Positions 7,822 through 44,338 of a stretch of 64,000 nt of DNA are shown here, piece by piece. Origin of the DNA: a virus (Duplodnaviria > Caudoviricetes). A program made the position numbers and the translations under genes. The number at the start of each line of letters is the position of its first letter. The first letter of the stretch is position 1. The DNA is taken from IMG/VR virus record IMGVR_UViG_3300025357_000908, positions 32,001 to 96,000 of that record; one strand, written 5' to 3'. Below the pieces are notes generated by a model. The model was given only the letters and a program-made list of their open reading frames with translations. It ran no database searches and was not told where the DNA came from.

Positions 7822-7840
7822 GGTAGAGTAATTATATGTT

Positions 7841-16917: not shown

Positions 16918-17962
16918 TAGTCCAAGAGTAGGTATTTTTTCAGACCCTCATTATGGTGTGCACCGTAATAGTGAAACGTGGCACAAGATTGCTTTAGAGC
17001 ATGCAAGGTGGGCGTCGGAACAATTCAAACAACAGGGCATAAAAGATATAATAATACCAGGAGATATATTTCATGATCGTAATGACATTGCTGTTAACAC
17101 TCTTCATGTGGCTACTGACATTTTTGATATATTGCGTGATTTTAACAACATTGTTACTGTGGGCAACCACGATGCTTATTACCGTGACAATTCTACCGTT
17201 AATTCCGTATCCATACTTCGCGGTTGGAGTAATATTACTGTTGTTGATAAGCTTGCGATCGAAACACTCCAAGGAAAGAAAATAGCTTTTTGTCCATGGG
17301 GTCAGGATATTAATGAAGTACCTAAGTGCGATTTAATTATAGGTCATTTTGAGGTTAATAGTTTCAAGATGAACTCTTATAAAGTATGTACTAATGGGCT
17401 TAAAGCTTCAGATTTAACAGATAGAGCTCCTTTAACTATTACAGGGCATTTCCATCATAGAGAGGAACGCAAATACAAGGATGGTACGATTCTTTATGTG
17501 GGTTGTCCTTATCAGCAGGATTGGGGTGATTATGGTACTACCAAAGGTTTGTATATTTTAGACTTAAAAGACTTAAGTTATGAGTTTATTGTTAACAATG
17601 TATCACCTCGTTATAACAAGATTAAATATTCTGAAATAGCTAATGGTGTATACACAGCTGAATCACTAAAAGGATTTATACGTAACAATATAGTAAAGTT
17701 TTATATAGATAAACAACTTACACCTGAAGTAGTAGATAACATTGTCAGAAAGATTGCTTCAATTAAACCTGTTGAACTTACTTTAGAGTATGATTATTCA
17801 GAACTATCTAAACTTAATGTAGAAGAAGCTAATACTAAGGATTTTAGTATAAGTGTTGAAAACTCTATATCGGAATTTATTGATTTATTAGATGTTAATC
17901 ATAAAGATAAGGTAAAGAGTTACGTAACTGATTTATACCATAGAGCACTAACAATAACATGA
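16907..17962 (+). CDS. recombination nuclease gp47 (Mre11/SbcD-like)
   Basis: SDPHYG, GDIFHDR, GNHD, GHF, GHFH metallophosphoesterase motifs. Confidence 0.92.
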   Translation: MQINSPRVGIFSDPHYGVHRNSETWHKIALEHARWASEQFKQQGIKDIIIPGDIFHDRNDIAVNTLHVATDIFDILRDFNNIVTVGNHDAYYRDNSTVNSVSILRGWSNITVVDKLAIETLQGKKIAFCPWGQDINEVPKCDLIIGHFEVNSFKMNSYKVCTNGLKASDLTDRAPLTITGHFHHREERKYKDGTILYVGCPYQQDWGDYGTTKGLYILDLKDLSYEFIVNNVSPRYNKIKYSEIANGVYTAESLKGFIRNNIVKFYIDKQLTPEVVDNIVRKIASIKPVELTLEYDYSELSKLNVEEANTKDFSISVENSISEFIDLLDVNHKDKVKSYVTDLYHRALTIT

Positions 17963-18756
17963 AAATAGGAGTAGCAGTAATAGCGTGCGATAGACTGGAA
18001 TACACTAAACAGTGTGTTGCAAGTGTACTCGCAAATAAAGGTCCATTGACTGATATTATTTTAATTAACGATGGTGTTAAGATACCAGACGGGGAATTAC
18101 CTGAAGGAATTGAAATAATGAACAATAGACCCCCTTATCAGTCTGTCGGTAAGGCTAAAAATAGAGCTATGCAGGTATTAGTAAATAGAGATTGTGATCA
18201 TATATTTCTTATTGAAAATGATATTATAGTTCAAACACCAGACGTATGGCAAAAATATATTGATGTTGCTAAGACTACCGGTGTAAAGCATTTAAATTTC
18301 GGTTATCATGGCCCAGCTAATAGAACACCGGATTATAAGAAACCGAATCCCAGATACGTTGTAGAGTATCCAGACGGTATTAAATTAGCACTTAATTTAC
18401 ATTGCGTTGGTGCGTTTTCATATTTTAATAAAGCATTTATGAAAGACGTTGGTTACCATGACACTTTCTTCAAAAATGCATGGGAGCATGTAGAGTTATG
18501 TCAAAGAGCTATTGCTAAAAATTATTTACCTGCTTTTTGGTGGTTTCCTGATGTAGAAGGTAGTGATGAAATGCTTAAAGAAATACCCGGCTCTATACAA
18601 AATAGCTCTATTACTCATACCGAGAAATGGACAGAAAATATGCACAAAGGTGCAGAACATTATAGAAAAATACATGGTGTTTCAGCTGTAGAAAACCCAG
18701 ATACTGATATAAAAATTGTGTTACAACGTTTAAAAGAAATATACAAATGCAAGTAA
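17959..18756 (+). CDS. GT2-like glycosyltransferase
   Basis: IILINDG, GKAKNRA, FLIENDI, AWEHVE. Confidence 0.8.
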   Translation: MKIGVAVIACDRLEYTKQCVASVLANKGPLTDIILINDGVKIPDGELPEGIEIMNNRPPYQSVGKAKNRAMQVLVNRDCDHIFLIENDIIVQTPDVWQKYIDVAKTTGVKHLNFGYHGPANRTPDYKKPNPRYVVEYPDGIKLALNLHCVGAFSYFNKAFMKDVGYHDTFFKNAWEHVELCQRAIAKNYLPAFWWFPDVEGSDEMLKEIPGSIQNSSITHTEKWTENMHKGAEHYRKIHGVSAVENPDTDIKIVLQRLKEIYKCK

Positions 18757-19532
18757 CCCATTTAGCATTAGCACCTAATGGCAACAGTGGTAGATTTGGT
18801 AATCAATTATTTTTAGTTGCCAGTACTATAGGTATAGCACTAAACAATAATATGAAATATGCTTTTCCTGAATGGAAGAACAATATTTACTTTAAAAAGA
18901 AATTGCCGCAATTAGCGCCTGGTACTGGTATAACATATAGCGAGCCGTCCTTTAAGTATACCCCAGTAAATTTTACTGATAAACAATTTGTATATCTTAG
19001 CGGTTACTTTCAAAGCCCTAAGTATTTTCAAAACTATGAAGACACAATAAGAGAGACATTTGAATTTAAAGATAATTTTATTAATAATGTAAAATCTGTA
19101 CTTGATGAAGCAAAATTAGGTACTACGTGTTCAATTCATGTACGTAGAGGAGATTATTTAAACTATACCGATATACATCCGCAGCAGCCGGCTGAATACT
19201 GGAGTAGTGCACAAAAAGTAATAGAAGATCATGAAAATATTAACACATACGTGGTTTTTTCTGATGATATTAACTGGTGTAAGCAAAATAAGCAGCTATT
19301 CAATACTACTGGTAAGAGAGTTGTTTTTATGCAAGGCAGAAACGAAATTGATGATTTTATAGGTATGATGTATTGTGATCACAATATTATTACTAACTCT
19401 ACTTTTTCATGGTGGGCAGCATGGTTAAATACTAATAAAAACAAAGCTGTTGTAATGCCTAAATTATGGTTCGGACCTAAAGGACCACCAGATAGTACAG
19501 ATTTGCAGGTAGAAGGATGGAAAATTATATGA
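18747..19532 (+). CDS. GT11 alpha-1,2-fucosyltransferase-like
   Basis: GRFGNQLF, GYFQS, IHVRRGDY, FSDDINWC, NSTFSWWAAWL. Confidence 0.9.
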   Translation: MQVTHLALAPNGNSGRFGNQLFLVASTIGIALNNNMKYAFPEWKNNIYFKKKLPQLAPGTGITYSEPSFKYTPVNFTDKQFVYLSGYFQSPKYFQNYEDTIRETFEFKDNFINNVKSVLDEAKLGTTCSIHVRRGDYLNYTDIHPQQPAEYWSSAQKVIEDHENINTYVVFSDDINWCKQNKQLFNTTGKRVVFMQGRNEIDDFIGMMYCDHNIITNSTFSWWAAWLNTNKNKAVVMPKLWFGPKGPPDSTDLQVEGWKII

Positions 19533-20350
19533 AAAAAGAACTTTATTTAAAAGATAGTAATTTCGGGCATTGTGCATTCAGCAACAATCCCACACCACCG
19601 GTTAGTTTTTCTGAACATATTATATGGAATCGCGGACCTGCACCTATAGGTGCTGACGTAGTATGTACGGACTGTCATTTAAATGACGGTAATATTGCCT
19701 GGATATTGGAACCATACGAAATTAATTCAGGCCCGTACATACACGTTAAAAATAATAGTTTGAAGTATAAAGAAATTTGGACACATGATAAAGAGCTTTT
19801 AACATTACCTAATGCTAAATGGTATCCGGTTGGAGGGTGTTGGTTAGAAGTACCTGAAAGAAAAATCTACGAAAAGAGCAAAATGTTCTCTATTATAGCT
19901 TCTAATAAGAATCAACTACCAGGTCATCAACTAAGACATCAAATAATACAAGCTTCTGGTAATAAGATAGATGCTTACGGGCATTCTTATACTCAATTTA
20001 AGAAACACTCAATGCATAAAATAGAGGGTTTAGCAGATTACCGTTATCATTTTGCAATTGAAAATTGTAAGAGAGATTTTTATTTTACAGAAAAACTTAT
20101 TGATACCTTGATGTCTGGTACAATTCCTATATACTGGGGATGTCCTTCTATTGATAAGTTCTTTAATACTGACGGCTTTATTATCTTTAATGACTTGTAC
20201 GATTTAAAAGAAAAACTTAAAAATTGTACAGTAGAGTTTTATGATAGTAAGAAAGCAGTTATTGAAGAAAACTTTAAATTAGCTCAAAACTACATCTTAT
20301 CAGAAGACTGGATATATAATAATATACTACAAAATGAAAAGACAATTTGA
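19529..20350 (+). CDS. GT10 alpha-1,3-fucosyltransferase-like
   Basis: YRYHFAIEN...YFTEKLID...GTIPIYWG. Confidence 0.85.
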   Translation: MKKELYLKDSNFGHCAFSNNPTPPVSFSEHIIWNRGPAPIGADVVCTDCHLNDGNIAWILEPYEINSGPYIHVKNNSLKYKEIWTHDKELLTLPNAKWYPVGGCWLEVPERKIYEKSKMFSIIASNKNQLPGHQLRHQIIQASGNKIDAYGHSYTQFKKHSMHKIEGLADYRYHFAIENCKRDFYFTEKLIDTLMSGTIPIYWGCPSIDKFFNTDGFIIFNDLYDLKEKLKNCTVEFYDSKKAVIEENFKLAQNYILSEDWIYNNILQNEKTI

Positions 20351-20648
20351 TACAGGCGCACAAAGAGATACAGATGTTGGTAAGCCGAGAATAAGTTTAG
20401 TACCTCATGAAGAACTTATGAGGGTAGCAAGTCATTTCGTATCTGGCGGTCAAAAGTATGGGTTCAACAACTGGAAAAAGGGCATGAACTCTTCAGTATA
20501 TTATGATAGTGCACAACGCCACTTGATTAAATACTGGCAAGGTGAAGATGATGAAGACCATGCTGCAGCTGCTGTATGGAATATTATGTGTATGATGTGG
20601 ACTGAAAAGAACAAACCAGAATTAGATGATAGAAAAGAATACCAATGA
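20334..20648 (+). CDS. dATP/dGTP diphosphohydrolase domain protein (DUF5664-like)
   Basis: FDTGAQRD...GKPR...GGQKYG.NNWKKG...SAQRHL...EDHAAAAVWN. Confidence 0.8.
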   Translation: MKRQFDTGAQRDTDVGKPRISLVPHEELMRVASHFVSGGQKYGFNNWKKGMNSSVYYDSAQRHLIKYWQGEDDEDHAAAAVWNIMCMMWTEKNKPELDDRKEYQ

Positions 20649-21400
20649 AAATTGATTTAAAAAACTTAACATTTACAGTACCTGTTAGAATTGATAGTGA
20701 AGACAGGGCGTTTAATCTTAACTATATTATTGAGTATTTACTGCATAATTTTGATACAAATATTATTGTATACGAGAACGGGCCTAAGTCTTTATTTAAA
20801 AACAAGTATGATATAACGCATATTTACGAGCAAAATGATGGTATTTTTCATCGCACTCGTTACCTCAATAATATGGCTAAACAGGCTACTACTGATTTTA
20901 TCGCTAACTATGATTGTGATGTGATATTTCCTGTAAAACAAATAGTTAAAGCTTATAACCTACTAAAAAGTAATAATTTAGATTGTGTTTACCCATATAG
21001 CGGGTACTTTGTTAACATTAAACGTGATATTTTAAATGAAATTACAAATTTAGACCCTGTTAATTTAAATCCAGATATATATCAAAATTTTGGTAAAAAT
21101 TCTTTTGGTGGTGCGGTATTTTGGTATAAAAAAGCTTTTATAGAGGGGGGTATGGAAAATGAAAATTGCGTATCTTGGGGATGTGAAGACTGGGAGCGTT
21201 TAAAGCGTTTTGAAATTCTCGGTTATCGTATTGCGAGAGTAAATGGGCCACTGTATCACATTGATCATGCAAGAACTCAGGATAGTAGTGAAGCTAACCC
21301 GTTTTATAATAACAACAGAAAAGAATTTGATAAAATATTAAACTCTAAAAAAGAAGATTTATTAAAATATGTTAGTACGTGGCCTTGGACAAAAACATAA
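20645..21400 (+). CDS. GT-A glycosyltransferase (GT7/GT2-type, galactosyltransferase-like)
   Basis: NYDCD (DxD), FGGAVF, GGMENE, WGCED, LYHIDH. Confidence 0.82.
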   Translation: MKIDLKNLTFTVPVRIDSEDRAFNLNYIIEYLLHNFDTNIIVYENGPKSLFKNKYDITHIYEQNDGIFHRTRYLNNMAKQATTDFIANYDCDVIFPVKQIVKAYNLLKSNNLDCVYPYSGYFVNIKRDILNEITNLDPVNLNPDIYQNFGKNSFGGAVFWYKKAFIEGGMENENCVSWGCEDWERLKRFEILGYRIARVNGPLYHIDHARTQDSSEANPFYNNNRKEFDKILNSKKEDLLKYVSTWPWTKT

Positions 21401-22182
21401 TGAAAAAAGTATACATTACTTTTAGTGGTAGTATCTATGATGATACTACCCGTATAATAGTTCAAGATGGTATAAAATATGGTGCTGATGAAGTTAAGGT
21501 GTACGATGATGTGTGGTTAATGAAACAACCATTTTTTGAACAAAATAAATGGCTCTGGGAACACCCGCACAAAAGAGGATTTGGATGGTACTGTTGGAAA
21601 CCGTTTATAATATATCATGCTTTACAGAACCTACAAGACGGAGATATAGTGTTGTTTACAGATGCTGATTGTTACCCTATTAGTGATTTAAATGTATTGT
21701 TTAATCAATGTGATAAAGATGGTGGTGTAATGTTATTTGCTGCTAACGGACAAACACACTCTTACTGGTGCAAAAAAGATTGCTATATAATAATGGGTCA
21801 AAATGACCCTAAATATTACAACGTACAAGCTGGTGTAGCACGGTTTATGTTATTTCAAAAAGGTAAATGGAAGGCTACACAGTTTTTAATGGAGTGGTTA
21901 ACATATTGCGTTAACCCATTAGCTACAACGTTTGATAAGAGTGTTCTTGCTGAAGAAACGCCTGAATTTATTGAACATAGAACCGAACAAGCAATAATGA
22001 CCAGTCTTGCACACAAGTATGGTTTAAAGCTTTATAGAGAAGCCTGCGGAGCTGGTAACAGGTATAGTTTTGATAAGGAGTTATATGAGCAATTATTCAT
22101 ACAGTTTAATCCTACCGATTTAGTTGGTAGTGAAAAAGCTACAATTAAACCCATAGGCTCTAAGTTTGCTAATGTTAATTGA
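21400..22182 (+). CDS. putative glycosyltransferase
   Basis: RGFGWYCWKPFII, FTDAD (DxD), EHRTEQAI. Confidence 0.65.
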   Translation: MKKVYITFSGSIYDDTTRIIVQDGIKYGADEVKVYDDVWLMKQPFFEQNKWLWEHPHKRGFGWYCWKPFIIYHALQNLQDGDIVLFTDADCYPISDLNVLFNQCDKDGGVMLFAANGQTHSYWCKKDCYIIMGQNDPKYYNVQAGVARFMLFQKGKWKATQFLMEWLTYCVNPLATTFDKSVLAEETPEFIEHRTEQAIMTSLAHKYGLKLYREACGAGNRYSFDKELYEQLFIQFNPTDLVGSEKATIKPIGSKFANVN

Positions 22183-22226
22183 GTTTACAGTAGAAAAAAA
22201 ATAGTTTTATAATATACTATTAAGTA

Positions 22227-24050
22227 ATGCGCTATGTTTATTTCAAACATTTAAAAATTACTAATTTCCTGTCTGTAGGTAAAAGACCGGTAGTTGTAGA
22301 TTTTAAGCCTGGACTAAATATCATTACAGGTAAAAACTATGATAAAGCTGATAGAGCGAATGGCGTTGGAAAGTCCACTATTGCTGACGCAGTGCATTTT
22401 GCTTTGTATGGTAGCACTATACGCGATCTTAAAAAAGAAAACATAGTAAACGATCAAGCACCTGATCAGTTGTGTGAAGTCGAGCTCGAGCTTACATACC
22501 AGCAAGACGGTAAAAATAATGAATGCCGGATATTAAGAACTCTTAATCCTACTAAGTGCTTTTTCTTCGTTAATGGTGAAGATGTTACCAGATCTGGTGT
22601 ACCACAAACTACAGAGCTAATAGTTGATACCATTAAAACATCTTCTGAAATATTTCAAAATAGTGTTGTTATGTCAATTAACACCACGGTGCCATTTATG
22701 GCGCAGAAAAAGATAGAAAAACGTAAGTTTATCGAGGGTATTCTTGGTCTTGAAGTATTTAGTAATATGTTAAGCTTTGCACGTTTTGATTATAATGAAG
22801 CAAAACGTCTGCTCGATATTGAAAGTACAAAGATAGAAGAGACGAACAGGTCTTTAGCCGATGCGGTTAAACAAAAAGAAAATTACGAAGACACTAAAAA
22901 GAAAAGACTTGAAGTACTATTAACACGTCAGTCTAATAACGCTAAGGAATTAGCGAGTATAGATGAAAAGCTTAATAGTTTAGAATCTGTTGATATAGCA
23001 GCAGAAAAACAAATACAAGATAAATTATCTACTTTAAAAACAGCTGAAGGGGTATGTGACCGTAAAATTGCTTCTATTAATAAGATTATTACAGAAGCAG
23101 AAACACATATTAAGCTCAATAATGATCGCATTAAAAAACTTAAAAAAGTAGATAGCAAATGTCCACATTGCGGTAAAGACTTGGCAGAAGCAGTAAATGT
23201 ACAATATGAGAAAGATAAAGCCGAGTGCCAGTTAGAAATACAGAAATATACAGAAGTTATTAGTACACAAAAACCGCTCTTAGTGGATTCCCAAGATCAA
23301 TTAAATAAGGTTGAAAAAGCTATTGTTACAATACAAAAGAAGATAAACGATTTTAATATTCGTAAAAAAGAAGTAGAGAATATTAACAACAGAGTAAAGC
23401 AGCTTAATGAATGGCAAGCTTCGTTAGTTGTAGATATCGATCAACTTAATAAAGACTCTAATAATTTTCAAGATACTATAGATACTATTGTGACAAGGCA
23501 GAACGATATCAAGAAGCAAATCAGCTCATTACAAGAGAGAATAGATATTGTTGAATCCGCTAAATTTATCGTAGACGAAGAAGGTGTAAAATCTTATATT
23601 GTTAAGAAGATATTACAAGTACTAAATATGCGTTTAGCGCAATACTTACGTAGACTTGAAAGTAACAGTATTGTTACATTTAACGAGTTCTTCGAAGAGT
23701 CTATTACTAATGAAAGGGGTAGTCAATGTAGTTACTTTAACTTTTCTGGGGCTGAACGCAAAGCTATCGACCTTGCAATGTTATTTACGTTTCAGGATAT
23801 TCGTAGAGCGCAAGCAGATGTATGGTTAAATTTGAGTATGTTTGATGAGTTATTTGACTCCTCTTTAGATGAAAAAGGCATTGAATTAGTACTTGATATT
23901 CTCAAAGAGAGGGTAGATAATTACAATGAGTCGATTTATATTATTTCTCACCGTAAAGAAAGTAAAAAGTACTGTATTGGTGGGGAGATAGTATATCTTG
24001 AAAAGAAGAATGGTATAACAACAAGAACAACAACTTATGACATTTCCTAA
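22227..24050 (+). CDS. recombination ATPase gp46 (Rad50/SbcC-like)
   Basis: NGVGKST, CPHCG zinc hook in coiled coil, FSGAE, FDELFD, ISH. Confidence 0.95.
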   Translation: MRYVYFKHLKITNFLSVGKRPVVVDFKPGLNIITGKNYDKADRANGVGKSTIADAVHFALYGSTIRDLKKENIVNDQAPDQLCEVELELTYQQDGKNNECRILRTLNPTKCFFFVNGEDVTRSGVPQTTELIVDTIKTSSEIFQNSVVMSINTTVPFMAQKKIEKRKFIEGILGLEVFSNMLSFARFDYNEAKRLLDIESTKIEETNRSLADAVKQKENYEDTKKKRLEVLLTRQSNNAKELASIDEKLNSLESVDIAAEKQIQDKLSTLKTAEGVCDRKIASINKIITEAETHIKLNNDRIKKLKKVDSKCPHCGKDLAEAVNVQYEKDKAECQLEIQKYTEVISTQKPLLVDSQDQLNKVEKAIVTIQKKINDFNIRKKEVENINNRVKQLNEWQASLVVDIDQLNKDSNNFQDTIDTIVTRQNDIKKQISSLQERIDIVESAKFIVDEEGVKSYIVKKILQVLNMRLAQYLRRLESNSIVTFNEFFEESITNERGSQCSYFNFSGAERKAIDLAMLFTFQDIRRAQADVWLNLSMFDELFDSSLDEKGIELVLDILKERVDNYNESIYIISHRKESKKYCIGGEIVYLEKKNGITTRTTTYDIS

Positions 24051-25200
24051 TAACGGCATTATTGGTGCCCCTCAAATGCCTTTTGGTGCACCTGTTGTGG
24101 GTAGCCCATTAACACAGCCCACCCCACCGCCAGTTTCAGTTGTACCGGAAGGTATGAGACGTGCTATAAGTTATGCTGCAGACCACCAAGGGTGCGGGTT
24201 TTGGAGAATGCACTGGGCTGAGTCTATTATTAATGGTAATCAATTGGGTATCATTAATAATAATAATTTTATGATCTTACAGGAGAACTTTTATCAAGGT
24301 ATATCTTGTGTAAGAATACAAAGACAGGTTACACCCACACAGCTACAATTTGTAAGACTTTTAAGAGACATTTCTAATAGAACCAACAATTTTAAGATTT
24401 ATTACGAAATTGATGATGTTATTTTCCCAGAAGATATTCCACTTTATAACAAAGCACGTGAAGCATTTGTTGATCCTGCCATTGGAGCTACTGCAATAGA
24501 AATTATGAAGCTTTGTGATGGTATTACAACGCCTACAGATTACATGTCAAAGTACTACGAAGAAAGAACCGGCGTAAAAGGAATCACACTTCCTAACTAT
24601 ATGCCAAGGTTCTGGATGGATCGTTTTTACAACAAAAATAAGATTTCTGAAAATTACGAATACAATAAAAAACGACCTCGTATCGGTTATGTGGGTAGTC
24701 CAACTCATTTTAATATTGCTGGTACTCCTGGAGTGAAAGACGACTTCGGTGATATATTAGATGTTATTGTAAAAACTGTAAAGCAGTTTAAATGGGTATT
24801 AATGGGCGGTTGCCCTCAGGAGCTTGCTGAATACGTGCGTAGTGGAGATATAGAATATGTAGGCTGGACAAAGCTTTGGGACTACCCTACAGCTTTTAAC
24901 AATTTAAACGTTAATATGGTAATTGCACCACTACAAAACAATAAATTTAATTTAGCAAAAGCTAATATTAAACATATTGAAGCAGGTGCGTTAGGTATAC
25001 CATGTGTTTGTCAAAATTTAGAGCCGTATAAAGAAGCTCCTTTACGGTTCAATACTCCTGATGAAATGATAAGCGTGATTAAAAAAACATTAAGCGACCG
25101 TCGTACTTATTTAACTGAATCGGATATAGCACGTAAAAATGCATGTAAATATTGGTTAGAAGATCATATTGATGAGCATTGCAAACTATATTTCACTTGA
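24037..25200 (+). CDS. GT-B (GT4-like) glycosyltransferase
   Basis: GCGFWR, YEIDD, IGYVGSPTH, IAPLQNNKFNLAKANIKHIEAGALGIP. Confidence 0.75.
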   Translation: MTFPNNGIIGAPQMPFGAPVVGSPLTQPTPPPVSVVPEGMRRAISYAADHQGCGFWRMHWAESIINGNQLGIINNNNFMILQENFYQGISCVRIQRQVTPTQLQFVRLLRDISNRTNNFKIYYEIDDVIFPEDIPLYNKAREAFVDPAIGATAIEIMKLCDGITTPTDYMSKYYEERTGVKGITLPNYMPRFWMDRFYNKNKISENYEYNKKRPRIGYVGSPTHFNIAGTPGVKDDFGDILDVIVKTVKQFKWVLMGGCPQELAEYVRSGDIEYVGWTKLWDYPTAFNNLNVNMVIAPLQNNKFNLAKANIKHIEAGALGIPCVCQNLEPYKEAPLRFNTPDEMISVIKKTLSDRRTYLTESDIARKNACKYWLEDHIDEHCKLYFT

Positions 25201-25232: not shown

Positions 25233-27797
25233 GTGTATCGTAACATATATTACAGTCAACGGGATAGTACTTGCCACCTCTTTACTTGGGATAAAGACGG
25301 TAACCGTGTAATCAAAAAGACACCTTACCAGCCTTATTTTTATATAGAGACTAATGCAGAAAGTGCAGACGCTCTTTCTATCTTTAATACTAAATTAAAG
25401 AAAAAAGTATTTAAAAGTAATTTTGATCGTAATAAAGCAGCACAAGACGGGGCAATTAAACGACTTTATCACAATATACAAGTAGAACAGCAATTCCTTA
25501 TTGAAAATTTTAAGGATGAATATGAAAAGCCTGAGTTTTCTGCTAACCCTTTAAAGGTTTGTTTTCTTGATATTGAGGTTTACTCTCCAGATGAGTTTCC
25601 TGAAGCTAAAGACGCTAAACACCCTATCAATCTATTAACGATTTATGATAACTTATCTGAACAATTTTATACCTGGGGGTGTAAGCCTTATACTCCAACT
25701 CGTAGTAACGTTACATATACTGAGTGTACAAGTGAGTACAATCTTTTAGAAAAGTTTTTAGAATTTTGGGAAAACGGTTATTATCCTGATATACTATCCG
25801 GGTGGAATACAGACTTTTTCGATTTTCCTTATCTGATTAACCGTATCAATAACCTTTTAGGTGAAGACGCTGCTAAACGTTTATCTCCTGTAAAAAGTCT
25901 TTGGTGTCGTAAAGGTATATTTGTTAAAGGTCAAGAGTTAGATCGTTGGTACATTCACGGTATTTCAGCAATGGATTATCTTGAAGTGTATAGAGGTTTT
26001 GCGCGTGGTTTATTAGAGTCTTATGCACTAAACTTTGTAGCTCAACACGAATTAGGTGAAGGTAAGTTAGCTATTAATGCTACTAACTTAGCCTCACTAT
26101 CTGAAAACGACTGGAATAACTTTGTAGATTATAATATTCAAGACGTTGATCTATTGGTACGCATGGAAAAGAAACTACAATTCTTTAAGATTATACGTAT
26201 GTTAGCGTACAAAGGATTGACATCGTTTGAAGCAGCTTTAGGTAAAGTATCTATTGTAACTGGCTGTGTTGCCTTACAAGCGTATAAACACGGTATGATT
26301 ATACCTACGTTTGTTGAAGGACCTTTAAGAGAGGAAATCCAGGGTGGTTTTGTAAGAGAACCCGAGAGAGGTCTACAGAGATCGATTGTGAGCTATGACG
26401 CTAACTCACTATACCCTAATACTATAATTACCCTGAATATATCCCCCGAGACGAAGTTCGGTAAGATAGTTAATAAGAACGATAAGGAAGTTATTATTCG
26501 TTATAGTAACAATAAAGAACAACCTATATCACACGAAAAGTTTATACAGTTTATGCAGGTTGAAAAACTTGCACTATCTAAAGCTAATGTTCTTTACACA
26601 CAAAAGAAAAAGGGTGTAGTTCCTGCTTTAATTGACGGTCTTTATAGTGAACGTGTAACAAACAAGAATCAGTATGTTGAGCTTAAAAAGAAACTAAGTA
26701 AATTAACCCCAGATACAGATGAGTACAAAACGTGTAAGTTTAATATGGAACGAGCGGACACTATCCAGCACGTCATCAAGATTCTTCTCAATTCTATCTA
26801 CGGGGTTTTTGCTAATAAGTTTAGCCCTATTTGTGATAGTGATCACGCTGGTAGCATTACTCTTACTGGGCAGTCGGTGGTTAAGCAAGCAAGTGATATC
26901 ATTGATCAATATGCTAAAGAAAAGTTTGGCTACACTGGTAAGTCGTTAACCATATATAACGACACGGATAGTACTCACGTTACTATTCAGCCGTTGTTAG
27001 ACCAGATGAAACTAAACATATTAACCGATAATAAGGTTAACAAAGAAGGTTTAAAATTCATCGATGATGAATTAGGAGTTTATCTTAATAATAACATTAA
27101 ACAATGGGCAAAGGATAAACTAAATTCTGTAGACCCTCGTTACTTCTTTAAACGTGAATCAATTTGTGATGTTGGTGTTTATCTTGAAAAGAAACGTTAC
27201 ATTATACATGTGTTGAACGATGAAGGCGCAGACGTTAATAAGTTTAAGTACGTCGGTGTTGAAATTGCACGCTCTACTACACCTAAGAAAGCTAAAGAAT
27301 TAATTAAGAAGGTTATTGAAAACAGTTTATTGGTACAAGATCAAAATAAGGCTAATGCTATTTATAGAGATGTGTATGACGGTTTTAAATCGTTAACTAT
27401 TGATGACGTAGCTATTAGAGGTGGTTTAAGTGACTTAGAAAAACATGAAGTTCGTTCAGAAGGCTTTAAAATAGCTAAAGGCACACCAAATCACGTAAAA
27501 GGCGCAATTTGGTATAACATGCTATTAAAGCATAGAGGGTTAGAAACAAAGTACGAACGTATTACTTCAGGTGGTAAGGTAAAAAAGATTTATATTGCAC
27601 CTAACAAGTATAATATTGATACTCTTTGCTACCCCGTCAGTTTTCCACCAGAATTAAACGATTTTCAAGTTGATTACGAAGAAATGTTCGATACAATTAT
27701 AGTACCTCCAGTAAAAGCAGTTTATGAAGCTCTTAACTGGCAGTTACCGCAAGTAAACAATCAAGCACAAACAGATTTATTCGACCTATTCACATGA
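25233..27797 (+). CDS. family B DNA polymerase (gp43-like)
   Basis: Exonuclease motifs DIE, GWN..FD.PY, YNIQD; polymerase motifs YDANSLYP, KILLNSIYG, YNDTDS; no intein-sized insert. Confidence 0.97.
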   Translation: MYRNIYYSQRDSTCHLFTWDKDGNRVIKKTPYQPYFYIETNAESADALSIFNTKLKKKVFKSNFDRNKAAQDGAIKRLYHNIQVEQQFLIENFKDEYEKPEFSANPLKVCFLDIEVYSPDEFPEAKDAKHPINLLTIYDNLSEQFYTWGCKPYTPTRSNVTYTECTSEYNLLEKFLEFWENGYYPDILSGWNTDFFDFPYLINRINNLLGEDAAKRLSPVKSLWCRKGIFVKGQELDRWYIHGISAMDYLEVYRGFARGLLESYALNFVAQHELGEGKLAINATNLASLSENDWNNFVDYNIQDVDLLVRMEKKLQFFKIIRMLAYKGLTSFEAALGKVSIVTGCVALQAYKHGMIIPTFVEGPLREEIQGGFVREPERGLQRSIVSYDANSLYPNTIITLNISPETKFGKIVNKNDKEVIIRYSNNKEQPISHEKFIQFMQVEKLALSKANVLYTQKKKGVVPALIDGLYSERVTNKNQYVELKKKLSKLTPDTDEYKTCKFNMERADTIQHVIKILLNSIYGVFANKFSPICDSDHAGSITLTGQSVVKQASDIIDQYAKEKFGYTGKSLTIYNDTDSTHVTIQPLLDQMKLNILTDNKVNKEGLKFIDDELGVYLNNNIKQWAKDKLNSVDPRYFFKRESICDVGVYLEKKRYIIHVLNDEGADVNKFKYVGVEIARSTTPKKAKELIKKVIENSLLVQDQNKANAIYRDVYDGFKSLTIDDVAIRGGLSDLEKHEVRSEGFKIAKGTPNHVKGAIWYNMLLKHRGLETKYERITSGGKVKKIYIAPNKYNIDTLCYPVSFPPELNDFQVDYEEMFDTIIVPPVKAVYEALNWQLPQVNNQAQTDLFDLFT

Positions 27798-28600
27798 TTA
27801 AAATATCTCACGAATCCCCTTTAAGTATGCTCGAGATCTCTCGTACATACAACGATTACGACTACGCTCTCGTACACTTGTTCGAAGAGCACCCAGAATA
27901 TTACAAGTTCTTTGAAGATAGTGTTAAAATGGGTAGACATGTCTTATTAGATAATTCTATCTTTGAATTAGGTGAATCTTTTAACCCTAAACGCTATGCT
28001 TATTGGATTCAAAGACTTAACCCTACTGAGTTTATCGTACCAGACGTATTAGAAGATTGTCAAGGTACTATTGATTCTGCTAAGAAATGCTTGTGGCACG
28101 ATTGGGACTTTGTTACTAACTCTAAAATAATGGGTGTTGTACAGGGTAAGACATATGGTGAATTAGTTAAGTGTTATGTAGCCTTAGACCAAGAGATCGG
28201 TGTAGATAAGTTAGCTATTTCATTTGACTATTCTTATTACCTCAAACTATTCCCACACCCTAACAAATGGGTATCTTATATGATGGGTAGAGTGATGACT
28301 CTTAATCAATTAATGAATGACGGTATTATTAATAAAGATAAACCTCACCACTTATTAGGTTGCGCACACCCAAGAGAATTTAGTTTCTATCAAGGACCTG
28401 AATATAACTGGATCGAGACGTTAGATACATCATCTCCTGTTGTTCACGGTATTAAAAGAGTAAGGTACTCTGATGCTATTGGTAACTGGAAGAAGGAGTC
28501 TACCAAGCTTGTAGATCTTTTAGATGTAATACCGGATGCAATGCAAGAAAAAATCATTGCAAATAATTTAATTGAGTTTAGAAACTACGTTAATGGATGA
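27794..28600 (+). CDS. dpdA: TGT-fold deazaguanine-handling enzyme (DpdA3-like)
   Basis: LLDNSIFE, VPDVLED, MGVVQG, HHLLG, LDTSSP as in TGT/DpdA barrels; overlaps the polymerase stop and precedes formyltransferase and queF. Confidence 0.75.
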   Translation: MIKISHESPLSMLEISRTYNDYDYALVHLFEEHPEYYKFFEDSVKMGRHVLLDNSIFELGESFNPKRYAYWIQRLNPTEFIVPDVLEDCQGTIDSAKKCLWHDWDFVTNSKIMGVVQGKTYGELVKCYVALDQEIGVDKLAISFDYSYYLKLFPHPNKWVSYMMGRVMTLNQLMNDGIINKDKPHHLLGCAHPREFSFYQGPEYNWIETLDTSSPVVHGIKRVRYSDAIGNWKKESTKLVDLLDVIPDAMQEKIIANNLIEFRNYVNG

Positions 28601-28827
28601 CAACATTAGAAGCTATAACCAACTCAGTTTATGCTAACTATCCCCATCTTTTGGCAGATAACGTGTCTATTGTTGATTATTGTTTTTGGGATTGTTTGTC
28701 AAATACGGAGATACCAGTAAAAGAAATGAAAGAAGTCAAAAATTACTTGACTTCTAACGGAATCGTTGATTTTACACTTGTAATTTTCTTTAGTGATAAT
28801 ACAATAGGTTATCGTCTAAAAATATGA
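28597..28827 (+). CDS. hypothetical protein
   Basis: ATGA overlaps on both sides inside the modification operon. Confidence 0.6.
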   Translation: MTTLEAITNSVYANYPHLLADNVSIVDYCFWDCLSNTEIPVKEMKEVKNYLTSNGIVDFTLVIFFSDNTIGYRLKI

Positions 28828-29402
28828 AACGTAACTTAATCTGGAAAGCATTCTTCTCTCAGAGTGGATCTGAAATAAATGAAATATCTAATAAGGTAGA
28901 AAGGTACCCGGATGCAATTATTACTAATAAGAGTTTTGACGATTTAGATAAAATTAACCCCGAATTACTTGAAAAGTGCTTTAATAAGTTCATATTTCTG
29001 CCGAAGAAACCAACTGTAGAAGAATACCGGGAAGCTATTAGACATACTGATGTCATAACGTTACATGGTTATCTTCGTATTCTACCGCCAGAAATATGCG
29101 GTAAATTTAAAATATATAATGGACATCCAGGACTTATAACCAAGTACCCAGAACTAAAAGGTAAAGACCCTCAAGCTAAAACATGGTACGCATACCCTGA
29201 AAAGAAGTACAACACACATGGACATGTTATTCATGAAGTTATACCAGAAGTAGATGCAGGTAGGGTTGTATCTGAAATGCGCTTCAGTACAGAGGATTTA
29301 TATTTAGATTATAAAAGTTTAGATTTATTTACTGAACATTTACATAGCGTAGCAATTCAAAATTGGGTTGGCTTTATGCGTAAAAGCCTATTAAATAAAT
29401 AA
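28824..29402 (+). CDS. PurN-like formyltransferase (putative preQ1 formyltransferase)
   Basis: FFSQSGS, LHGYLRIL, YNGHPGL, GHVIHEV...VDAG (N-x-H-P and Asp of GAR transformylases). Confidence 0.85.
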   Translation: MKRNLIWKAFFSQSGSEINEISNKVERYPDAIITNKSFDDLDKINPELLEKCFNKFIFLPKKPTVEEYREAIRHTDVITLHGYLRILPPEICGKFKIYNGHPGLITKYPELKGKDPQAKTWYAYPEKKYNTHGHVIHEVIPEVDAGRVVSEMRFSTEDLYLDYKSLDLFTEHLHSVAIQNWVGFMRKSLLNK

Positions 29403-29404
29403 TT

Positions 29405-29980
29405 ATGAGATCAAACTATAAAGCTGCAATCTGTGGCGCTCATTCACAAGGTAAGACTACATTAGTAAAAGCACTAAAAGATGATCTGTTCTTAGATGAT
29501 CAGCATTTTAGTTTTAGAACTAATCTAACAAGAGGTCTTAAAGATTTAAACGTACCTATTAATGAAGGTGGTACTTCTTTAACTCAATATCTGGTAATGG
29601 CTCGTCATTTAGAGTATGCTCTAACTCCAGGTAACTGGATCTTAGATAGAGGTGCTTTAGACGGAATTGCATATACTGCTTATTTTTATGAGAAAGAACA
29701 AGTCAATAAAGATGTATATCAAGCAGCTTTATCTGTTTATGAATCACTGTTAGGTACTTACGATAAGATTTTTTATGTTGTACCCGAACTTGATATTAAA
29801 GATGACGGTGAAAGAAGTACAAATAAAGAATTCTTTGATGGTGTAGTAAAACAATTTGATTTTTATATCAAACATCATTCAATGCCTAAAGACAAACTTG
29901 TTTATGTGATAGGATCAGTAAAAGATAGAGTTAAAATAATAACAGATACAATTAAAAAAGATTTTACCAATGAGCTATAA
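29405..29980 (+). CDS. P-loop nucleotide kinase (AAA_28-like)
   Basis: GAHSQGKTT, LDRGALDGIAY, DDGER. Confidence 0.75.
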   Translation: MRSNYKAAICGAHSQGKTTLVKALKDDLFLDDQHFSFRTNLTRGLKDLNVPINEGGTSLTQYLVMARHLEYALTPGNWILDRGALDGIAYTAYFYEKEQVNKDVYQAALSVYESLLGTYDKIFYVVPELDIKDDGERSTNKEFFDGVVKQFDFYIKHHSMPKDKLVYVIGSVKDRVKIITDTIKKDFTNEL

Positions 29981-30890
29981 TACTAATAATATCGATAAAG
30001 TACTCGGTCAGAGAGTAGACTCTCCAAGTACATATACCCCAGAGATTTTGGTGCGTGAAGAGCGCCAACGTAACCGCACATATCTTGATCTTAAGAACGG
30101 TTCTTTACCTTTCGTGGGTTATGATATCTGGAATGGCTACGAATGTAGTGCATTAACAGATAGTGGTTTACCTGTTACTTGTGTTGCTAAAGTAGTATAC
30201 TCTGCTGAAAACGATTTCATTGTAGAGTCTAAGTCAATGAAGCTTTATTGGAACTCATTTAATATGCAGAAAATGGGTAAGAATACTAAGGAAGTACTTA
30301 AGAACATTAAACAAACAGCTTCTAAAGACCTATCCTTATTATTAGAGACTGATGTTAAGGTAGAGCTATTCTCTCAAATTACTGACACTGAAACCGAAAA
30401 AGATAGAGAAGTTTGGTTTTCAGATCATAGTTCCAAAATTTGGCGCCCATTAGAACAAATTAAGAGTGCAGAAAAGATTAAGTTTACTGTATTCAACGAG
30501 AATGCTGATCTGTTAGTAGCTAATGAAACCGAATCAACAGAACAACACTTCTATATGAGTACTCTGTTACGTTCTAACTGTAAAATTACAAAGCAACCAG
30601 ATTCGGGCGATATTTTCATTTACTATAAAGGTAATAAAGCAGTAACTGAACAATCTCTATTAGAATGGATTGTTTCATTCCGTAATGAATGTCATTTCCA
30701 CGAAGAAATCTGTGAAGCTGCTTATAAGCGTTTATGGGACTTGTTACAACCTGAAGAGCTTATGGTAACTTGCTACTACGCAAGACGTGGTGGTTGGGAT
30801 ATTGTTCCTACACGTGCTTCTCATAAGAAACTACTCAACAAGTATCTTGTTAATGTAAAAGCACCTTACTTTAAATTTCCTCGTCAATAA
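29970..30890 (+). CDS. queF: NADPH-dependent preQ0 reductase, bimodular type
   Basis: QueF motif ESKSMKLY, catalytic SNCKITKQPD, FHEE, RRGG. Confidence 0.95.
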   Translation: MSYNTNNIDKVLGQRVDSPSTYTPEILVREERQRNRTYLDLKNGSLPFVGYDIWNGYECSALTDSGLPVTCVAKVVYSAENDFIVESKSMKLYWNSFNMQKMGKNTKEVLKNIKQTASKDLSLLLETDVKVELFSQITDTETEKDREVWFSDHSSKIWRPLEQIKSAEKIKFTVFNENADLLVANETESTEQHFYMSTLLRSNCKITKQPDSGDIFIYYKGNKAVTEQSLLEWIVSFRNECHFHEEICEAAYKRLWDLLQPEELMVTCYYARRGGWDIVPTRASHKKLLNKYLVNVKAPYFKFPRQ

Positions 30891-30926: not shown

Positions 30927-31280
30927 ATGAACTCAGATCAAATCATTGTATTCCTTGATAACATTCAACGTACTATCGTTGCTACATATGTAAGCAGTGA
31001 CGATAACAATATCGTTGTAACTAAGCCTGCTATTTTAAACGTAACACCCTCACAAGACAAAAAATTACAAGTACAACTCTATCCTTTAATGTTTAGAGAG
31101 TTCTTTAAAGACCGCGATGTATTTCCTACATGGACATACAGCAAGTCACAAATTGCTTTAGCACAAGATCTTGACCTTGAAGCTAATCTTATTGCTCAAT
31201 ACACAGAAATGTTCAAAGTAATTAAGAACGAACCTGCTCCTACCATCAAGCTATTTGATGCTGATGACGATAAGAGCTAA
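30927..31280 (+). CDS. hypothetical protein
   Basis: Promoter TTGATT-N16-TAATAT (30893-30920) ends 6 nt before the ATG. Confidence 0.65.
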   Translation: MNSDQIIVFLDNIQRTIVATYVSSDDNNIVVTKPAILNVTPSQDKKLQVQLYPLMFREFFKDRDVFPTWTYSKSQIALAQDLDLEANLIAQYTEMFKVIKNEPAPTIKLFDADDDKS

Positions 31281-38312: not shown

Positions 38313-38906
38313 ATGATTAATAATTTATTTCCTACACCTATATACGTTACAGATCTACCATCCAATGTAATAGAAAACGTACAGAGCGAGTTCGATACGG
38401 TATATAACGAGTACAAATTAAAAAACGAATTCGGAAAACAAGAAGGCTGGAAAGGCACTCATCTATTAAGCGACCCAACGTTTAAGAGTAGTTTCATAAA
38501 AGAATATAATTTATTATATTTTCAAAACGTGTTAAAAGATCATGTAACTGTTTATCTTAAGAGTATCAAATACGGTGGTAAGATAGACTATGATATACCT
38601 GGATCCTGGATGACATTATCCCGGAAAAATGAATATGCATATACCCACACGCATGGTTCGTATGATATATCGGGAGTGTATTATTACAAAACTAATAGTT
38701 CAGACGGTGATATATATTTTAGAACCCCTAACCCCTTACCGTATGCGACATATTGTTATAGCGGGTTAACTACTGATGTATACTACAAGCCAGTAGTTGG
38801 CAGGTTAATATTGTTCCCGTCATGGCTTAATCATGGCACTATACCTAACACTACCGATAATGAAAGGGTAAGTGTATCCTTTAATTTAAGATTTACTAAA
38901 AAATAA
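38313..38906 (+). CDS. 2OG-Fe(II) oxygenase (TIGR02466-like)
   Basis: LFPTPIY, SW, HTH, ISGVYY, LILFPSWLNH, RVSVSFN. Confidence 0.88.
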   Translation: MINNLFPTPIYVTDLPSNVIENVQSEFDTVYNEYKLKNEFGKQEGWKGTHLLSDPTFKSSFIKEYNLLYFQNVLKDHVTVYLKSIKYGGKIDYDIPGSWMTLSRKNEYAYTHTHGSYDISGVYYYKTNSSDGDIYFRTPNPLPYATYCYSGLTTDVYYKPVVGRLILFPSWLNHGTIPNTTDNERVSVSFNLRFTKK

Positions 38907-38966
38907 AATATGAAAAACACACAAACAACAGGTGATAATTTTCAAAATTATAATATTATAAACGAT

Positions 38967-39632
38967 ATGAGCACACAACCGAATAATAACCTTGAGCACC
39001 CAACACTTCCTACAGCTAATAGTAGTATGATTACTACAGAAGAAGACAGGAAAGCAATTATTGAAAAAGCTGCAGAAGCGTATTCATCTTTTCTTGATGC
39101 ACTACGTATTGATTGGCGTAATGACGTCAATAGTGCTGATACACCCCGTCGTGTAGCTAAGGCTTATGTATGTGACCTTATCAAAGGTTGCTATGAAGGC
39201 CCGCCTAAGATTACTACATTCCCTTCAGACGGTTATGATGGTATTGTTAGTCAGATGAATATACCTGTAGTGTCTATGTGTTCCCATCACCATTTATCTT
39301 TTACTGGTGTTGCACACGTAGCCTATATTCCAGATAAGAACGGTCAAGTTATTGGCTTGTCTAAGCTCAATCGTATTGTAGAGCATTATGCCCGCCGCCC
39401 TCAAATCCAAGAAGGCCTAACAGTTCAAATACATCAAGCAATCGATCAACTCTGTGTTGGTAATCAAGGTGTTGCAGTTATTCTTAAATGTTCTCATACC
39501 TGTGCTTGTCATCGTGGTGTAAAGCATCATGGCTGTGCAATGATTACTTCTAAGTTATCTGGGGATTTTATGAATGAACCACAAACTCGTAAAGAATTTT
39601 ACGATTTCGTTGCATCTGCTGAACGCGAATAA
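38967..39632 (+). CDS. folE: GTP cyclohydrolase I
   Basis: TPRRVAK, SMCSHHHL, GLSKLNR, QIQE, HTCACHRG; ATG 38967 follows GTGATA-N16-TATTAT. Confidence 0.95.
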   Translation: MSTQPNNNLEHPTLPTANSSMITTEEDRKAIIEKAAEAYSSFLDALRIDWRNDVNSADTPRRVAKAYVCDLIKGCYEGPPKITTFPSDGYDGIVSQMNIPVVSMCSHHHLSFTGVAHVAYIPDKNGQVIGLSKLNRIVEHYARRPQIQEGLTVQIHQAIDQLCVGNQGVAVILKCSHTCACHRGVKHHGCAMITSKLSGDFMNEPQTRKEFYDFVASAERE

Positions 39633-43712: not shown

Positions 43713-43743
43713 ACCCATCAATTTAAATATTGATGGGTTTTTT
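43713..43743 (+). terminator. intrinsic terminator between convergent genes
   Basis: ACCCATCAAT-ttaaat-ATTGATGGGT followed by a T-run. Confidence 0.8.
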
Positions 43744-44338
43744 ATGTCATACGGAAATTCATAGCAATACTAATTCTATTTTCATTGCTTTTATTTTTTT
43801 CTACCATGTGAGCAAGATTTGATCTAAAAACTATTACGTCCCCTTCTTGAGGTTGTATGTGGTATGTTTTGAAGTTAGGCATGACGAACTGCTCGGGTGG
43901 TGGTAGTGGGAACATATCTTTATCTGCTTCGTGACTTCTAAAAATAATTTTACCACAGTTTATAGGTATTTTAACATAGTACACTAAACTGAAATGATTA
44001 AGTGTATGTACATGGTATTCTTGAAAGTTACCAGGCTCTGCAATATTTATCCATGCCTCGCTACAAGCCGGTACCCTATTGTTTATACCATACTCTTTAG
44101 CAAATTCTTTTACCTCTATTTTACAATCATTAATTAAATTGTTAAAAAGCGGGTCATTGATTAAATTATACGAAGATAGTGTATTGTACGTGTCTCCAAT
44201 CCAATCAGAATTTAATTTATTGTTTTTCTTTAACTCGTATGCTTTAGCAATATAACGCTCGTTATTGTCTTTATGTTCTAACAAGTTTTTCTTGTAAACA
44301 AGTTCCGCAAACATTATACCAGTATTAGAGTTGCTCAT
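43742..44338 (-). CDS. 2OG-Fe(II) oxygenase (TIGR02466-like)
   Basis: AWIN, HVH, FSLVYY, VFRSNLAH, RISIAMN; own promoter TAGATT-N16-TATTAT (44372..44345). Confidence 0.85.
   Translation of the reverse strand: MSNSNTGIMFAELVYKKNLLEHKDNNERYIAKAYELKKNNKLNSDWIGDTYNTLSSYNLINDPLFNNLINDCKIEVKEFAKEYGINNRVPACSEAWINIAEPGNFQEYHVHTLNHFSLVYYVKIPINCGKIIFRSHEADKDMFPLPPPEQFVMPNFKTYHIQPQEGDVIVFRSNLAHMVEKNKSNENRISIAMNFRMT

Follow-up and report, generated by a model that had tools for sequence, protein, structure and literature searches.

A PolB-linked DpdA3 cassette in an uncultured phage suggests guanine exchange on free nucleotides before replication

The operon and the preQ0 pathway

The window analysed here is a stretch of 64,000 nucleotides (positions 32,001 to 96,000) of the IMG/VR viral contig IMGVR_UViG_3300025357_000908, which spans 122,736 bp and has a CheckV completeness of ~58%. 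Open reading frame (ORF) calling and inspection of the junction sequences place on its + strand a block of six genes that encode a family B DNA polymerase (PolB), a tRNA-guanine transglycosylase (TGT)-like ORF, a 76-aa ORF, a formyltransferase, a P-loop kinase and QueF. We refer to the TGT-like protein as DpdA3 and to the formyltransferase as DpdN, following the transglycosylase subfamily and the enzyme named in the study of the Flavobacterium phage immuto (Cui, Hutinet et al., PMC10516641). The block consists of the following genes:

25233-27797, + strand: PolB, family B DNA polymerase (Pfam DNA_pol_B 2.8e-23, DNA_pol_B_exo1 3.4e-17)
27794-28600, + strand: DpdA3-type TGT-fold transglycosylase, 268 aa, predicted from homology and an AlphaFold2 model to be a bare (beta/alpha)8 barrel with no Zn motif
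28597-28827, + strand: 76-aa ORF, conserved in this phage lineage only
28824-29402, + strand: DpdN, PurN-like formyltransferase (Formyl_trans_N, PF00551, 2.7e-7)
29405-29980, + strand: AAA_28 P-loop kinase with a nucleoside/nucleoside monophosphate (NMP)-kinase fold (AAA_28 4e-10; phrog_2107)
29970-30890, + strand: bimodular QueF, predicted preQ0 to preQ1 reductase (QueF_N 6.4e-27, QueF 1.6e-19; TIGR03138 1.7e-65)

A first-pass annotation, made from the DNA letters, had described these genes as joined by overlapping or abutting stops and starts, and the ORF coordinates and junction sequences bear this out. Three junctions are ATGA overlaps (the PolB stop with the DpdA3 start, DpdA3 with the 76-aa ORF, and the 76-aa ORF with DpdN), a 2-nt gap separates the end of DpdN at 29402 from the start of the kinase gene at 29405, and the kinase and QueF genes overlap by 11 nt. 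No terminator-like site was found on the + strand between 22000 and 33000, and a scan of the same interval for sigma-70 promoters and terminators gave counts not above those in shuffled sequence, so that the operon boundaries cannot be set by that scan. The gene arrangement is not a product of chance, because over 20 IMG/VR contigs from the same PolB lineage share this order, as do many other lineages with other polymerases; PolB lies directly 5' of DpdA3 in all PolB-lineage relatives examined. Searched by megablast against 50,697 phage records, the operon gave no match and therefore has no close cultured relative. The 76-aa ORF is 47-82% identical in more than 20 related loci, always at the same position; it gave no Pfam or PHROG lead, and an atlas search returned only uninformative rows with low TM scores.

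All seven pathway genes are present in the window. The earlier annotation had placed folE, queD, queE and queC outside the operon, where we also find them, together with three further genes that are relevant to the argument below:

38910-39632, + strand: FolE, GTP cyclohydrolase I (PF01227 1.1e-47; NF006824 2.7e-48)
10931-11395, - strand: QueD (PTPS 1.3e-17; TIGR03367 5e-9)
10106-10909, - strand: QueE-like radical SAM enzyme, diverged (Fer4_12 2.9e-4)
5282-6004, - strand: QueC (PF06508 7.6e-62; TIGR00364 178.8 bits, above cut-off)
4624-5280, - strand: class-II glutamine amidotransferase (GATase), directly downstream of QueC (GATase_6 5.7e-9, GATase_7 7e-8)
8968-9678, - strand: second AAA_28 kinase paralogue, near queE and queD (AAA_28 1.7e-9; phrog_2107 1.2e-14)
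20334-20648, + strand: stand-alone DUF5664 (PF18909) protein, candidate pyrophosphohydrolase for dGTP to dGMP (PF18909 1.8e-25)

Judged by these matches, FolE, QueD, QueE and QueC would make the preQ0 base and QueF would reduce it to preQ1. The five best NCBIfam matches of the QueE-like ORF are all QueE models (best 1.2e-10), all of them below the cut-off. QueC and the GATase are found as a pair in many DpdA3 loci, and the GATase is possibly the ammonia donor for nitrile formation or the split form of a Gat-QueC fusion. A DUF366 protein is encoded near the GATase at 2647-3228 (- strand).

The first-pass annotation had named a link between DpdA3, a PurN paralogue and formyl-dPreQ1 (fdPreQ1) in a Flavobacterium phage, and this was correct: in immuto DNA fdPreQ1 replaces guanine at 100%, with no dG and 345,000 fdPreQ1 per 10^6 nucleotides (PMC10516641). 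The immuto cassette has the same order as that of the window, namely DpdA3, small ORF, DpdN, AAA_28 kinase ('thymidylate kinase') and QueF, and both phages encode the full preQ0 pathway. Identities are 50% for DpdA3, 44.5% for DpdN (YP_010114479; 1.8e-47), 36% for the kinase (immuto gp203) and 42% for QueF. The two loci differ in that PolB lies upstream in the window, joined through the stop/start overlap, whereas immuto has a family A polymerase downstream; in that a DUF5664 gene 7 kb upstream takes the place of immuto's PRA-PH/MazG-like hydrolase just upstream of DpdA3; and in that the que genes of the window are scattered over 35 kb and both strands, unlike those of immuto. Immuto also has a phosphoribosyltransferase (PRTase), which was not found in the window, and the small ORFs at the same position are unrelated, with no similarity between the 76-aa ORF and its immuto counterpart; nor is the ORF at 30927-31280 similar to immuto gp201. 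The phage of the window is known as a metagenomic contig; homology and gene order indicate that its cassette is another, PolB-linked, member of the known DpdA3/DpdN fdPreQ1 system.

Folds and conserved residues of DpdA3, DpdN and the kinase

The TGT-like ORF matches no Pfam family at E <= 0.01, PF01702 (TGT) included, and none of its listed relatives carries a precomputed Pfam domain. In tblastn searches it is 50% identical to immuto DpdA (6e-78) and 42-43% identical to CP220 gp056 and its counterparts in CP220-like phages (2e-45), and a family HMM built around it matches phiST CGPG_00065 at 1e-24. By sequence similarity it thus belongs with DpdA3. The AlphaFold2 model (pLDDT 96.3, pTM 0.93) is a (beta/alpha)8 barrel for which the top 50 Foldseek matches are all TGT (E ~3e-8), with TGT/ArcTGT alone at the top, and it superimposes on TGT/ArcTGT with a Z score of 17.7 and a root-mean-square deviation of 2.9-3.4 over ~231 residues. 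The best PDB profile match is the Salmonella DNA-guanine transglycosylase, while phmmer searches of PDB sequences with DpdA3 and with the kinase gave chance matches only. Altogether, homology and the modelled fold indicate that DpdA3 is a TGT-fold base-exchange enzyme.

Invariant residues across 70 DpdA3 sequences include D53, D84, H186, G189, D211 and P215, of which the last four form an invariant stretch of H186-x-x-G189 and D211-T-S-x-P215. This H-L-L-G...D-T-S-x-P region aligns with Salmonella DpdA, with D211-T-S on I-D-S, in a weak alignment (E 0.3), and HLLG aligns with YLMG of E. coli Tgt in a weak local hhalign match (E 8e-4, probability 25%). The CxCxxC Zn motif of TGT is present in 0/70 members, no Cys or His is conserved beyond residue 218, and with a median length of 267 aa and a median pI of 5.6 the family is one of compact acidic barrels. 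In both the Pfam match and the Zn motif the protein thus differs from canonical Tgt; clustering with canonical Tgt was an outcome that the earlier annotation had set against its own reading. Bacterial DpdA (of DpdA/DpdB/DpdC systems) and phage DpdA1 and DpdA2 share with DpdA3 the superfamily, a preQ0-type 7-deazaguanine base and, as far as the weak alignment above shows, the H-L-L-G...D-x-S region; they differ in being larger (436 aa for 7ui4) and in modifying DNA partially, whereas DpdA3 has 268 aa, lacks CxCxxC and is tied to a kinase. The DpdA3 family, which carries no annotation, is very large: clustering at 90% identity leaves over 4,184 proteins, and at 50% there are 1,860 representatives, or clusters.

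Two family members, P0141 and P0246 (447 aa), are natural DpdA3-DpdN fusions, and the two enzymes therefore act on consecutive intermediates. Among the 14 long family members none has a kinase domain fused to DpdA3. Other long members join DpdA3 to DUF3310 (P0212, 344 aa) or to a NUMOD3 homing-endonuclease motif (P0125, 475 aa), and P0189 (586 aa) carries a 317-aa N-terminal extension for which we have no explanation.

Could the window instead encode a Tgt-like enzyme acting on tRNA, together with preQ1 synthesis for queuosine supply, as auxiliary metabolic genes that leave the phage DNA unchanged? The TGT fold and the FolE-QueF set, which is the canonical queuosine precursor pathway, would fit such an RNA-directed role. 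We regard it as highly improbable given the missing PF01702 match and Zn motif, and the closest characterised relatives are the DpdA3 proteins of phages with fully modified DNA. Moreover, the formyltransferase and the kinase have no part in queuosine synthesis in tRNA, and the genes are embedded in a replication module.

By homology, DpdN is a PurN-type formyltransferase, predicted to formylate preQ1, as base, nucleotide or part of DNA, at its aminomethyl group. When 15 DpdN sequences are aligned with PurN, the PurN catalytic residues N106, H108 and D144 (in the numbering of E. coli PurN) do not vary, and the alignment with E. coli PurN also shows that DpdN retains S8, G11 and S12 of the N-terminal S-x-x-G-S loop, which in PurN binds the 5'-phosphate of GAR (glycinamide ribonucleotide). 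PurN naturally acts on a 5'-phosphoribosyl compound that bears a CH2-NH2 group. By analogy, dPreQ1 monophosphate (dPreQ1-MP) would offer DpdN the same two features, a 5'-phosphate and a CH2-NH2 group. The formyltransferase activity of DpdN is likewise described as only 'predicted' in the immuto study (PMC10516641).

The operon kinase is 33% identical to CP220 gp057, and its AlphaFold2 model (pLDDT 88.8) matches the ribosylnicotinamide kinase domain of NadR (NadR-RNK; Z 16.9), human deoxyguanosine kinase (dGK; 16.1), deoxycytidine kinase (dCK; 15.9) and thymidylate kinase (TMPK; 15.6). In hhalign comparisons the family profile scores a probability of 79% against E. coli NadR (E 1.6e-5) and of 6% against Tmk. 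The modelled fold is thus that of small-molecule nucleoside/NMP kinases. NMP kinases are no closer to it than the nucleoside kinases (NadR-RNK, dGK, dCK), and therefore the species that is phosphorylated or exchanged may be a deoxynucleoside, not dGMP/dGTP. Of the earlier proposal that a kinase within the operon serves to build a modified dNTP, the kinase fold and the coupling to DpdA3 hold, whereas the substrate is not necessarily an NMP. The second kinase of the window (8968-9678) is 21% identical to the operon kinase; we considered it as a relative of CP220 gp055 and rejected this, the similarity being at the level of the P-loop only.

Base exchange before or after replication

For a comparison of neighbourhoods, 80 IMG/VR loci (L numbers below) were fetched and their ORFs labelled by blastp, and neighbours were counted in the 19 non-redundant DpdA3 clusters for which the downstream sequence was long enough. 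The AAA_28 kinase is found no more than 2.5 kb from DpdA3 in 19/19 clusters, as against 18/19 for QueF and 17/19 for DpdN, and is thus the most constant neighbour of DpdA3. It also stays when tailoring genes are missing: in L063 and L074/L078 DpdN is absent and DpdA3, kinase and QueF remain, and L037/L038 (L037:10001-11991), close relatives from the PolB lineage, keep DpdA3, small ORF and kinase and have neither DpdN nor QueF. Identity to the window is 80% for the small ORF of these relatives and only 58% for their DpdA3. DpdN and QueF thus act like a tailoring module that can be exchanged. The kinase of L063 (L063:6123-7079) has a C-terminal extension with a weak match to GNAT acetyltransferases (E 0.0023); judged by this match, and there being no DpdN in that locus, the protein may represent an N-acyl-preQ1 variant whose kinase and tailoring enzyme form one fused polypeptide.

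The same association is seen in CP220 (Firehammervirus; dADG) and phiST (a Cellulophaga phage; dDG), two DpdA3 phages with 100% replacement in which a P-loop kinase and a nucleoside triphosphate (NTP) hydrolase adjoin DpdA3. Both lack QueF and DpdN, so that the final base differs from that of the window. In CP220 the order is gp055 (HD and P-loop), gp056 (DpdA3) and gp057 (kinase). In phiST the family HMM finds no AAA_28 orthologue, and the order is MazG, one ORF, an AAA_18 P-loop protein (CGPG_00066) immediately preceding DpdA3, DpdA3 itself, a small ORF and DNA polymerase III alpha in two ORFs, the first with PHP and DNA_pol3_alpha and the second with DNA_pol3_alpha, finger and HHH_6 domains. 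This polymerase, adjacent as in the window, is encoded in a 3.8-kb unannotated gap right after DpdA3 (L085, NC_020842, 41629-45229, minus strand). None of the three phiST proteins, the AAA_18 kinase, the MazG hydrolase and the Pol III alpha polymerase, is orthologous to its counterpart in the window. In Bacillus phage BSTP12, an unrelated 187-aa P-loop protein precedes a DpdA3-like gene and an overlapping PolA; as an orthologue of the window kinase this protein was rejected, since it is similar at the level of the P-loop only. Among the comparative arguments for a kinase requirement of DpdA3, the strongest is that the P-loop function is kept through non-orthologous replacement in phiST and BSTP12.

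Two more distant loci repeat the theme. L089 has dUTPase, MazG, DpdA3, an ORF without assignment, AAA_28 and QueF in this order. L088 (L088:610-4086) encodes an AAA_28 kinase, a 419-aa DpdA3 with an extended C-terminus, a protein of the DCD/dUTPase superfamily and a Vut_1-family transporter, and there are no que genes on its 7.6-kb contig. Vut_1 is the YhhQ family of preQ0/preQ1 importers, and this would suggest that the L088 module may import the precursor instead of making it.

NTP hydrolases of unrelated families recur beside or near DpdA3. The immuto lineage has the PRA-PH/MazG-like gp208, separated from DpdA3 by one small ORF, CP220 has an HD protein, phiST and L089 have MazG, L088 has DCD, and L074 and L089 have dUTPase. 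The window itself has DUF5664, whose gene is conserved in a corresponding position in its close relatives L004, L020, L025, L037 and L038. Reading its product as a dNTP diphosphohydrolase, as the first-pass annotation did, is fair: PF18909 is DUF5664, and the stand-alone member of phage Wayne converts dATP, dUTP and dGTP to the corresponding dNMPs (PMC12884076). Neither PF04447, the catalytic dATP/dGTP pyrophosphatase domain that partners DUF5664, nor MazG was found in the whole 122.7-kb contig, which at ~58% completeness is weak evidence of absence, and a search of PDB sequences with the DUF5664 protein gave nothing meaningful.

There is a published precedent for such a hydrolase feeding a base exchange. 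In PurZ0 phages, hydrolases of the DUF5664/DutZ type supply DmtZ, which occurs naturally as a deoxyribose-5-phosphate transferase and converts dAMP and the Z base into dZMP (PMC12884076). The analogy is in the way the route works, the base of a dNMP being exchanged on deoxyribose 5-phosphate before polymerisation; DmtZ has a nucleoside deoxyribosyltransferase fold and not that of TGT, and it swaps adenine for 2-aminoadenine. In the hydroxymethylcytosine (hmC) pathway of T4, gp56 acts as dCTPase, gp42 as dCMP hydroxymethylase and gp1 as dNMP kinase. This pathway resembles the route proposed below in that a canonical dNTP is converted to the dNMP, modified as the monophosphate, re-phosphorylated by a phage kinase and polymerised; it differs in the base, in the enzyme families and in modifying a base rather than exchanging it.

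With a probability that we put at about 0.55, we favour a model whereby DpdA3 exchanges the base on a free deoxynucleotide or deoxynucleoside before replication and not on finished DNA. In this model, the DUF5664 enzyme would convert dGTP to dGMP, thereby depleting dGTP and supplying the deoxyribose donor, and DpdA3 would replace guanine by preQ1 (or preQ0) on dGMP or a related small molecule. Once the product is 5'-phosphorylated, DpdN would add the formyl group at its aminomethyl group. Further phosphorylation to the triphosphate would fall to host enzymes and the AAA_28 kinase, perhaps assisted by the paralogue at 8968-9678, and the co-transcribed PolB would polymerise the triphosphate. Held with the same slight preference, the general form of the model is that DpdA3 would not be a DNA transglycosylase but the first TGT-fold enzyme to act on free dGMP or dG, which with preQ0 or preQ1 would yield the 7-deaza product and guanine. 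It would form the core of a pre-replicative module of dGTP hydrolase, DpdA3 and dedicated kinase, in which DpdN formylates the nucleotide as PurN does GAR, and this would explain why G is replaced at 100% in immuto, CP220 and phiST as well as in thousands of uncultured phages.

We favour this model because of the constancy of the kinase, its replacement by non-orthologous P-loop proteins, its small-molecule-kinase fold and the recurring NTP hydrolases; because DpdA3 is a bare acidic barrel without CxCxxC, is found fused to DpdN, and has in DpdN a partner with the PurN triad and loop; and because of the DUF5664/DutZ-fed deoxyribose-5-phosphate transferase as a precedent. Three published observations point the same way: DpdA3 alone is inactive in E. 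coli, where DpdA1 and DpdA2 work; DpdA3 phages reach 100% replacement, other DpdAs 30% or less (0.1-30% of G); and the ADG nucleoside was seen in cytoplasm from CP220-infected cells (PMC10516641). Comparative genomics, folds and fusions strengthen the nucleotide-level proposal of the first-pass annotation, which contradicts the published post-replicative one. Coupling to the polymerase, on which the earlier annotation had also drawn, is real in that the adjacency recurs with polymerases of the PolA, PolB and PolC types; it is weak evidence for a nucleotide-level route because nucleotide-metabolism genes commonly sit in replication modules. In the literature on DpdA3, DpdN and 7-deazaguanine we found no paper that proposes a link to the kinase, or that puts forward or tests a nucleotide-level DpdA3, and the immuto study does not mention the kinase (PMC10516641).

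That study argues for insertion by DpdA3 after replication (PMC10516641). DNA would be replicated with dGTP, and DpdA3 would swap every G for preQ1 or formyl-preQ1, or DpdN would formylate preQ1-DNA; the kinase and pyrophosphatases would serve in pool management, or the P-loop protein would be a DpdB-like helper. We consider this possible but are inclined to doubt it. It has points in its favour, several of which count against exchange on free nucleotides. To our knowledge, every biochemically characterised TGT or DpdA enzyme acts on a polynucleotide and none on a mononucleotide or nucleoside, and we know of no report of a modified dNTP. The top fold matches of DpdA3 are tRNA enzymes and its best PDB profile match acts on DNA, while the mapping of its residues onto Tgt and DpdA rests on the weak alignments given above. 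Bacterial DpdA needs an ATPase partner, DpdB; by analogy, the P-loop protein beside DpdA3 might couple energy to exchange at the DNA level, though its fold argues otherwise. The kinase family is nearer to the NadR ribosylnicotinamide kinase than to Tmk, so that its step may be at the nucleoside or the NMP, and it could also have an unrelated salvage role. The DUF5664 gene of the window, for a candidate dGTP hydrolase, lies 7 kb upstream, outside the operon. In several lineages no NTP hydrolase could be identified next to DpdA3, and in the largest IMG/VR lineage (L039-L062) the conserved 145-aa ORF between FolE and DpdA3 (L041:9567-10004, ~19 homologues), considered as a hidden MazG or DUF5664, was ruled out by Pfam and hhalign and belongs to no Pfam family. 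Finally, phage replication modules often hold genes of nucleotide metabolism in any case.

Exchange after replication nevertheless leaves several observations unexplained: the constancy of the kinase (19/19), its retention without DpdN and QueF and its replacement in phiST and BSTP12; the recurrence of unrelated NTP hydrolase families; the loss from DpdA3 of the Zn motif and of extra TGT elements; and the failure of DpdA3 in E. coli where DpdA1 and DpdA2 succeed (PMC10516641). The PRTase that immuto has and the window lacks brings in a further route, in which a PRTase would join preQ0 or preQ1 to phosphoribosyl pyrophosphate (as for toyocamycin), the kinase would make the diphosphate, ribonucleotide reductase (RNR) would convert it to the deoxy form for the polymerase, and DpdA3 would be left with an ancillary task, for instance the proofreading of residual G. 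Immuto and many relatives do have a small PRTase within or close to the que cluster, and phiST has one beside the RNR region. The 122.7-kb contig (~58% complete) has no Pribosyltran match, the PRTase is absent from many DpdA3 loci while DpdA3 and the kinase are constant, and a PRTase could equally salvage the guanine freed by base exchange, making the ribonucleotide route improbable. As for exchange in finished DNA, complete base replacement in T4, SPO1, PBS1 and S-2L is pre-replicative, which also counts against it.

The gene set itself has been described before, and the question of interest is how DpdA3 phages replace every guanine; the published answer, post-replicative exchange, is a proposal, and DpdA3 alone failed in E. 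coli. If guanine is indeed swapped at the nucleotide level, the TGT superfamily gains a new class of substrate, and 7-deazaguanine DNA joins hmC, hydroxymethyluracil (hmU), dU and Z as a replacement made at the level of the pool. A pyrophosphatase, DpdA3 and a kinase, with QueF and DpdN as options, would then be a candidate enzymatic route to 7-deaza-dGTP analogues, which are widely used in sequencing and PCR. Given the large DpdA3 family, the answer applies to many environmental phages.

Other genes of the window

The region upstream of the operon (17959-25200, + strand) contains five ORFs of glycosyltransferase families (GT2 weak, GT11, GT10, GT7C/GT2 and GT1_4 weak), among which lie the genes for DUF5664 and for an SMC/Rad50-like protein. 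The last of these five ORFs (24037-25200) lies directly before PolB and is kept there in all PolB-lineage relatives. Two ORFs of the tryptophan-halogenase family are found at 48167-49705 and 50120-51349 (+ strand), and four 2OG-Fe(II) oxygenase and two Methyltransf_24 ORFs lie at 1636-2277 (-), 38313-38906, 43742-44338 (-), 46520-47203, 44592-45155 and 45528-46202. Together, the halogenases, oxygenases and methyltransferases make up a small-molecule tailoring load that is unusual for a phage. A TnsA-like endonuclease ORF at 7841-8296 (+ strand) overlaps the 5' end of the gene for a DnaG-like primase (6802-7863, minus strand) and is probably a homing-type insertion.

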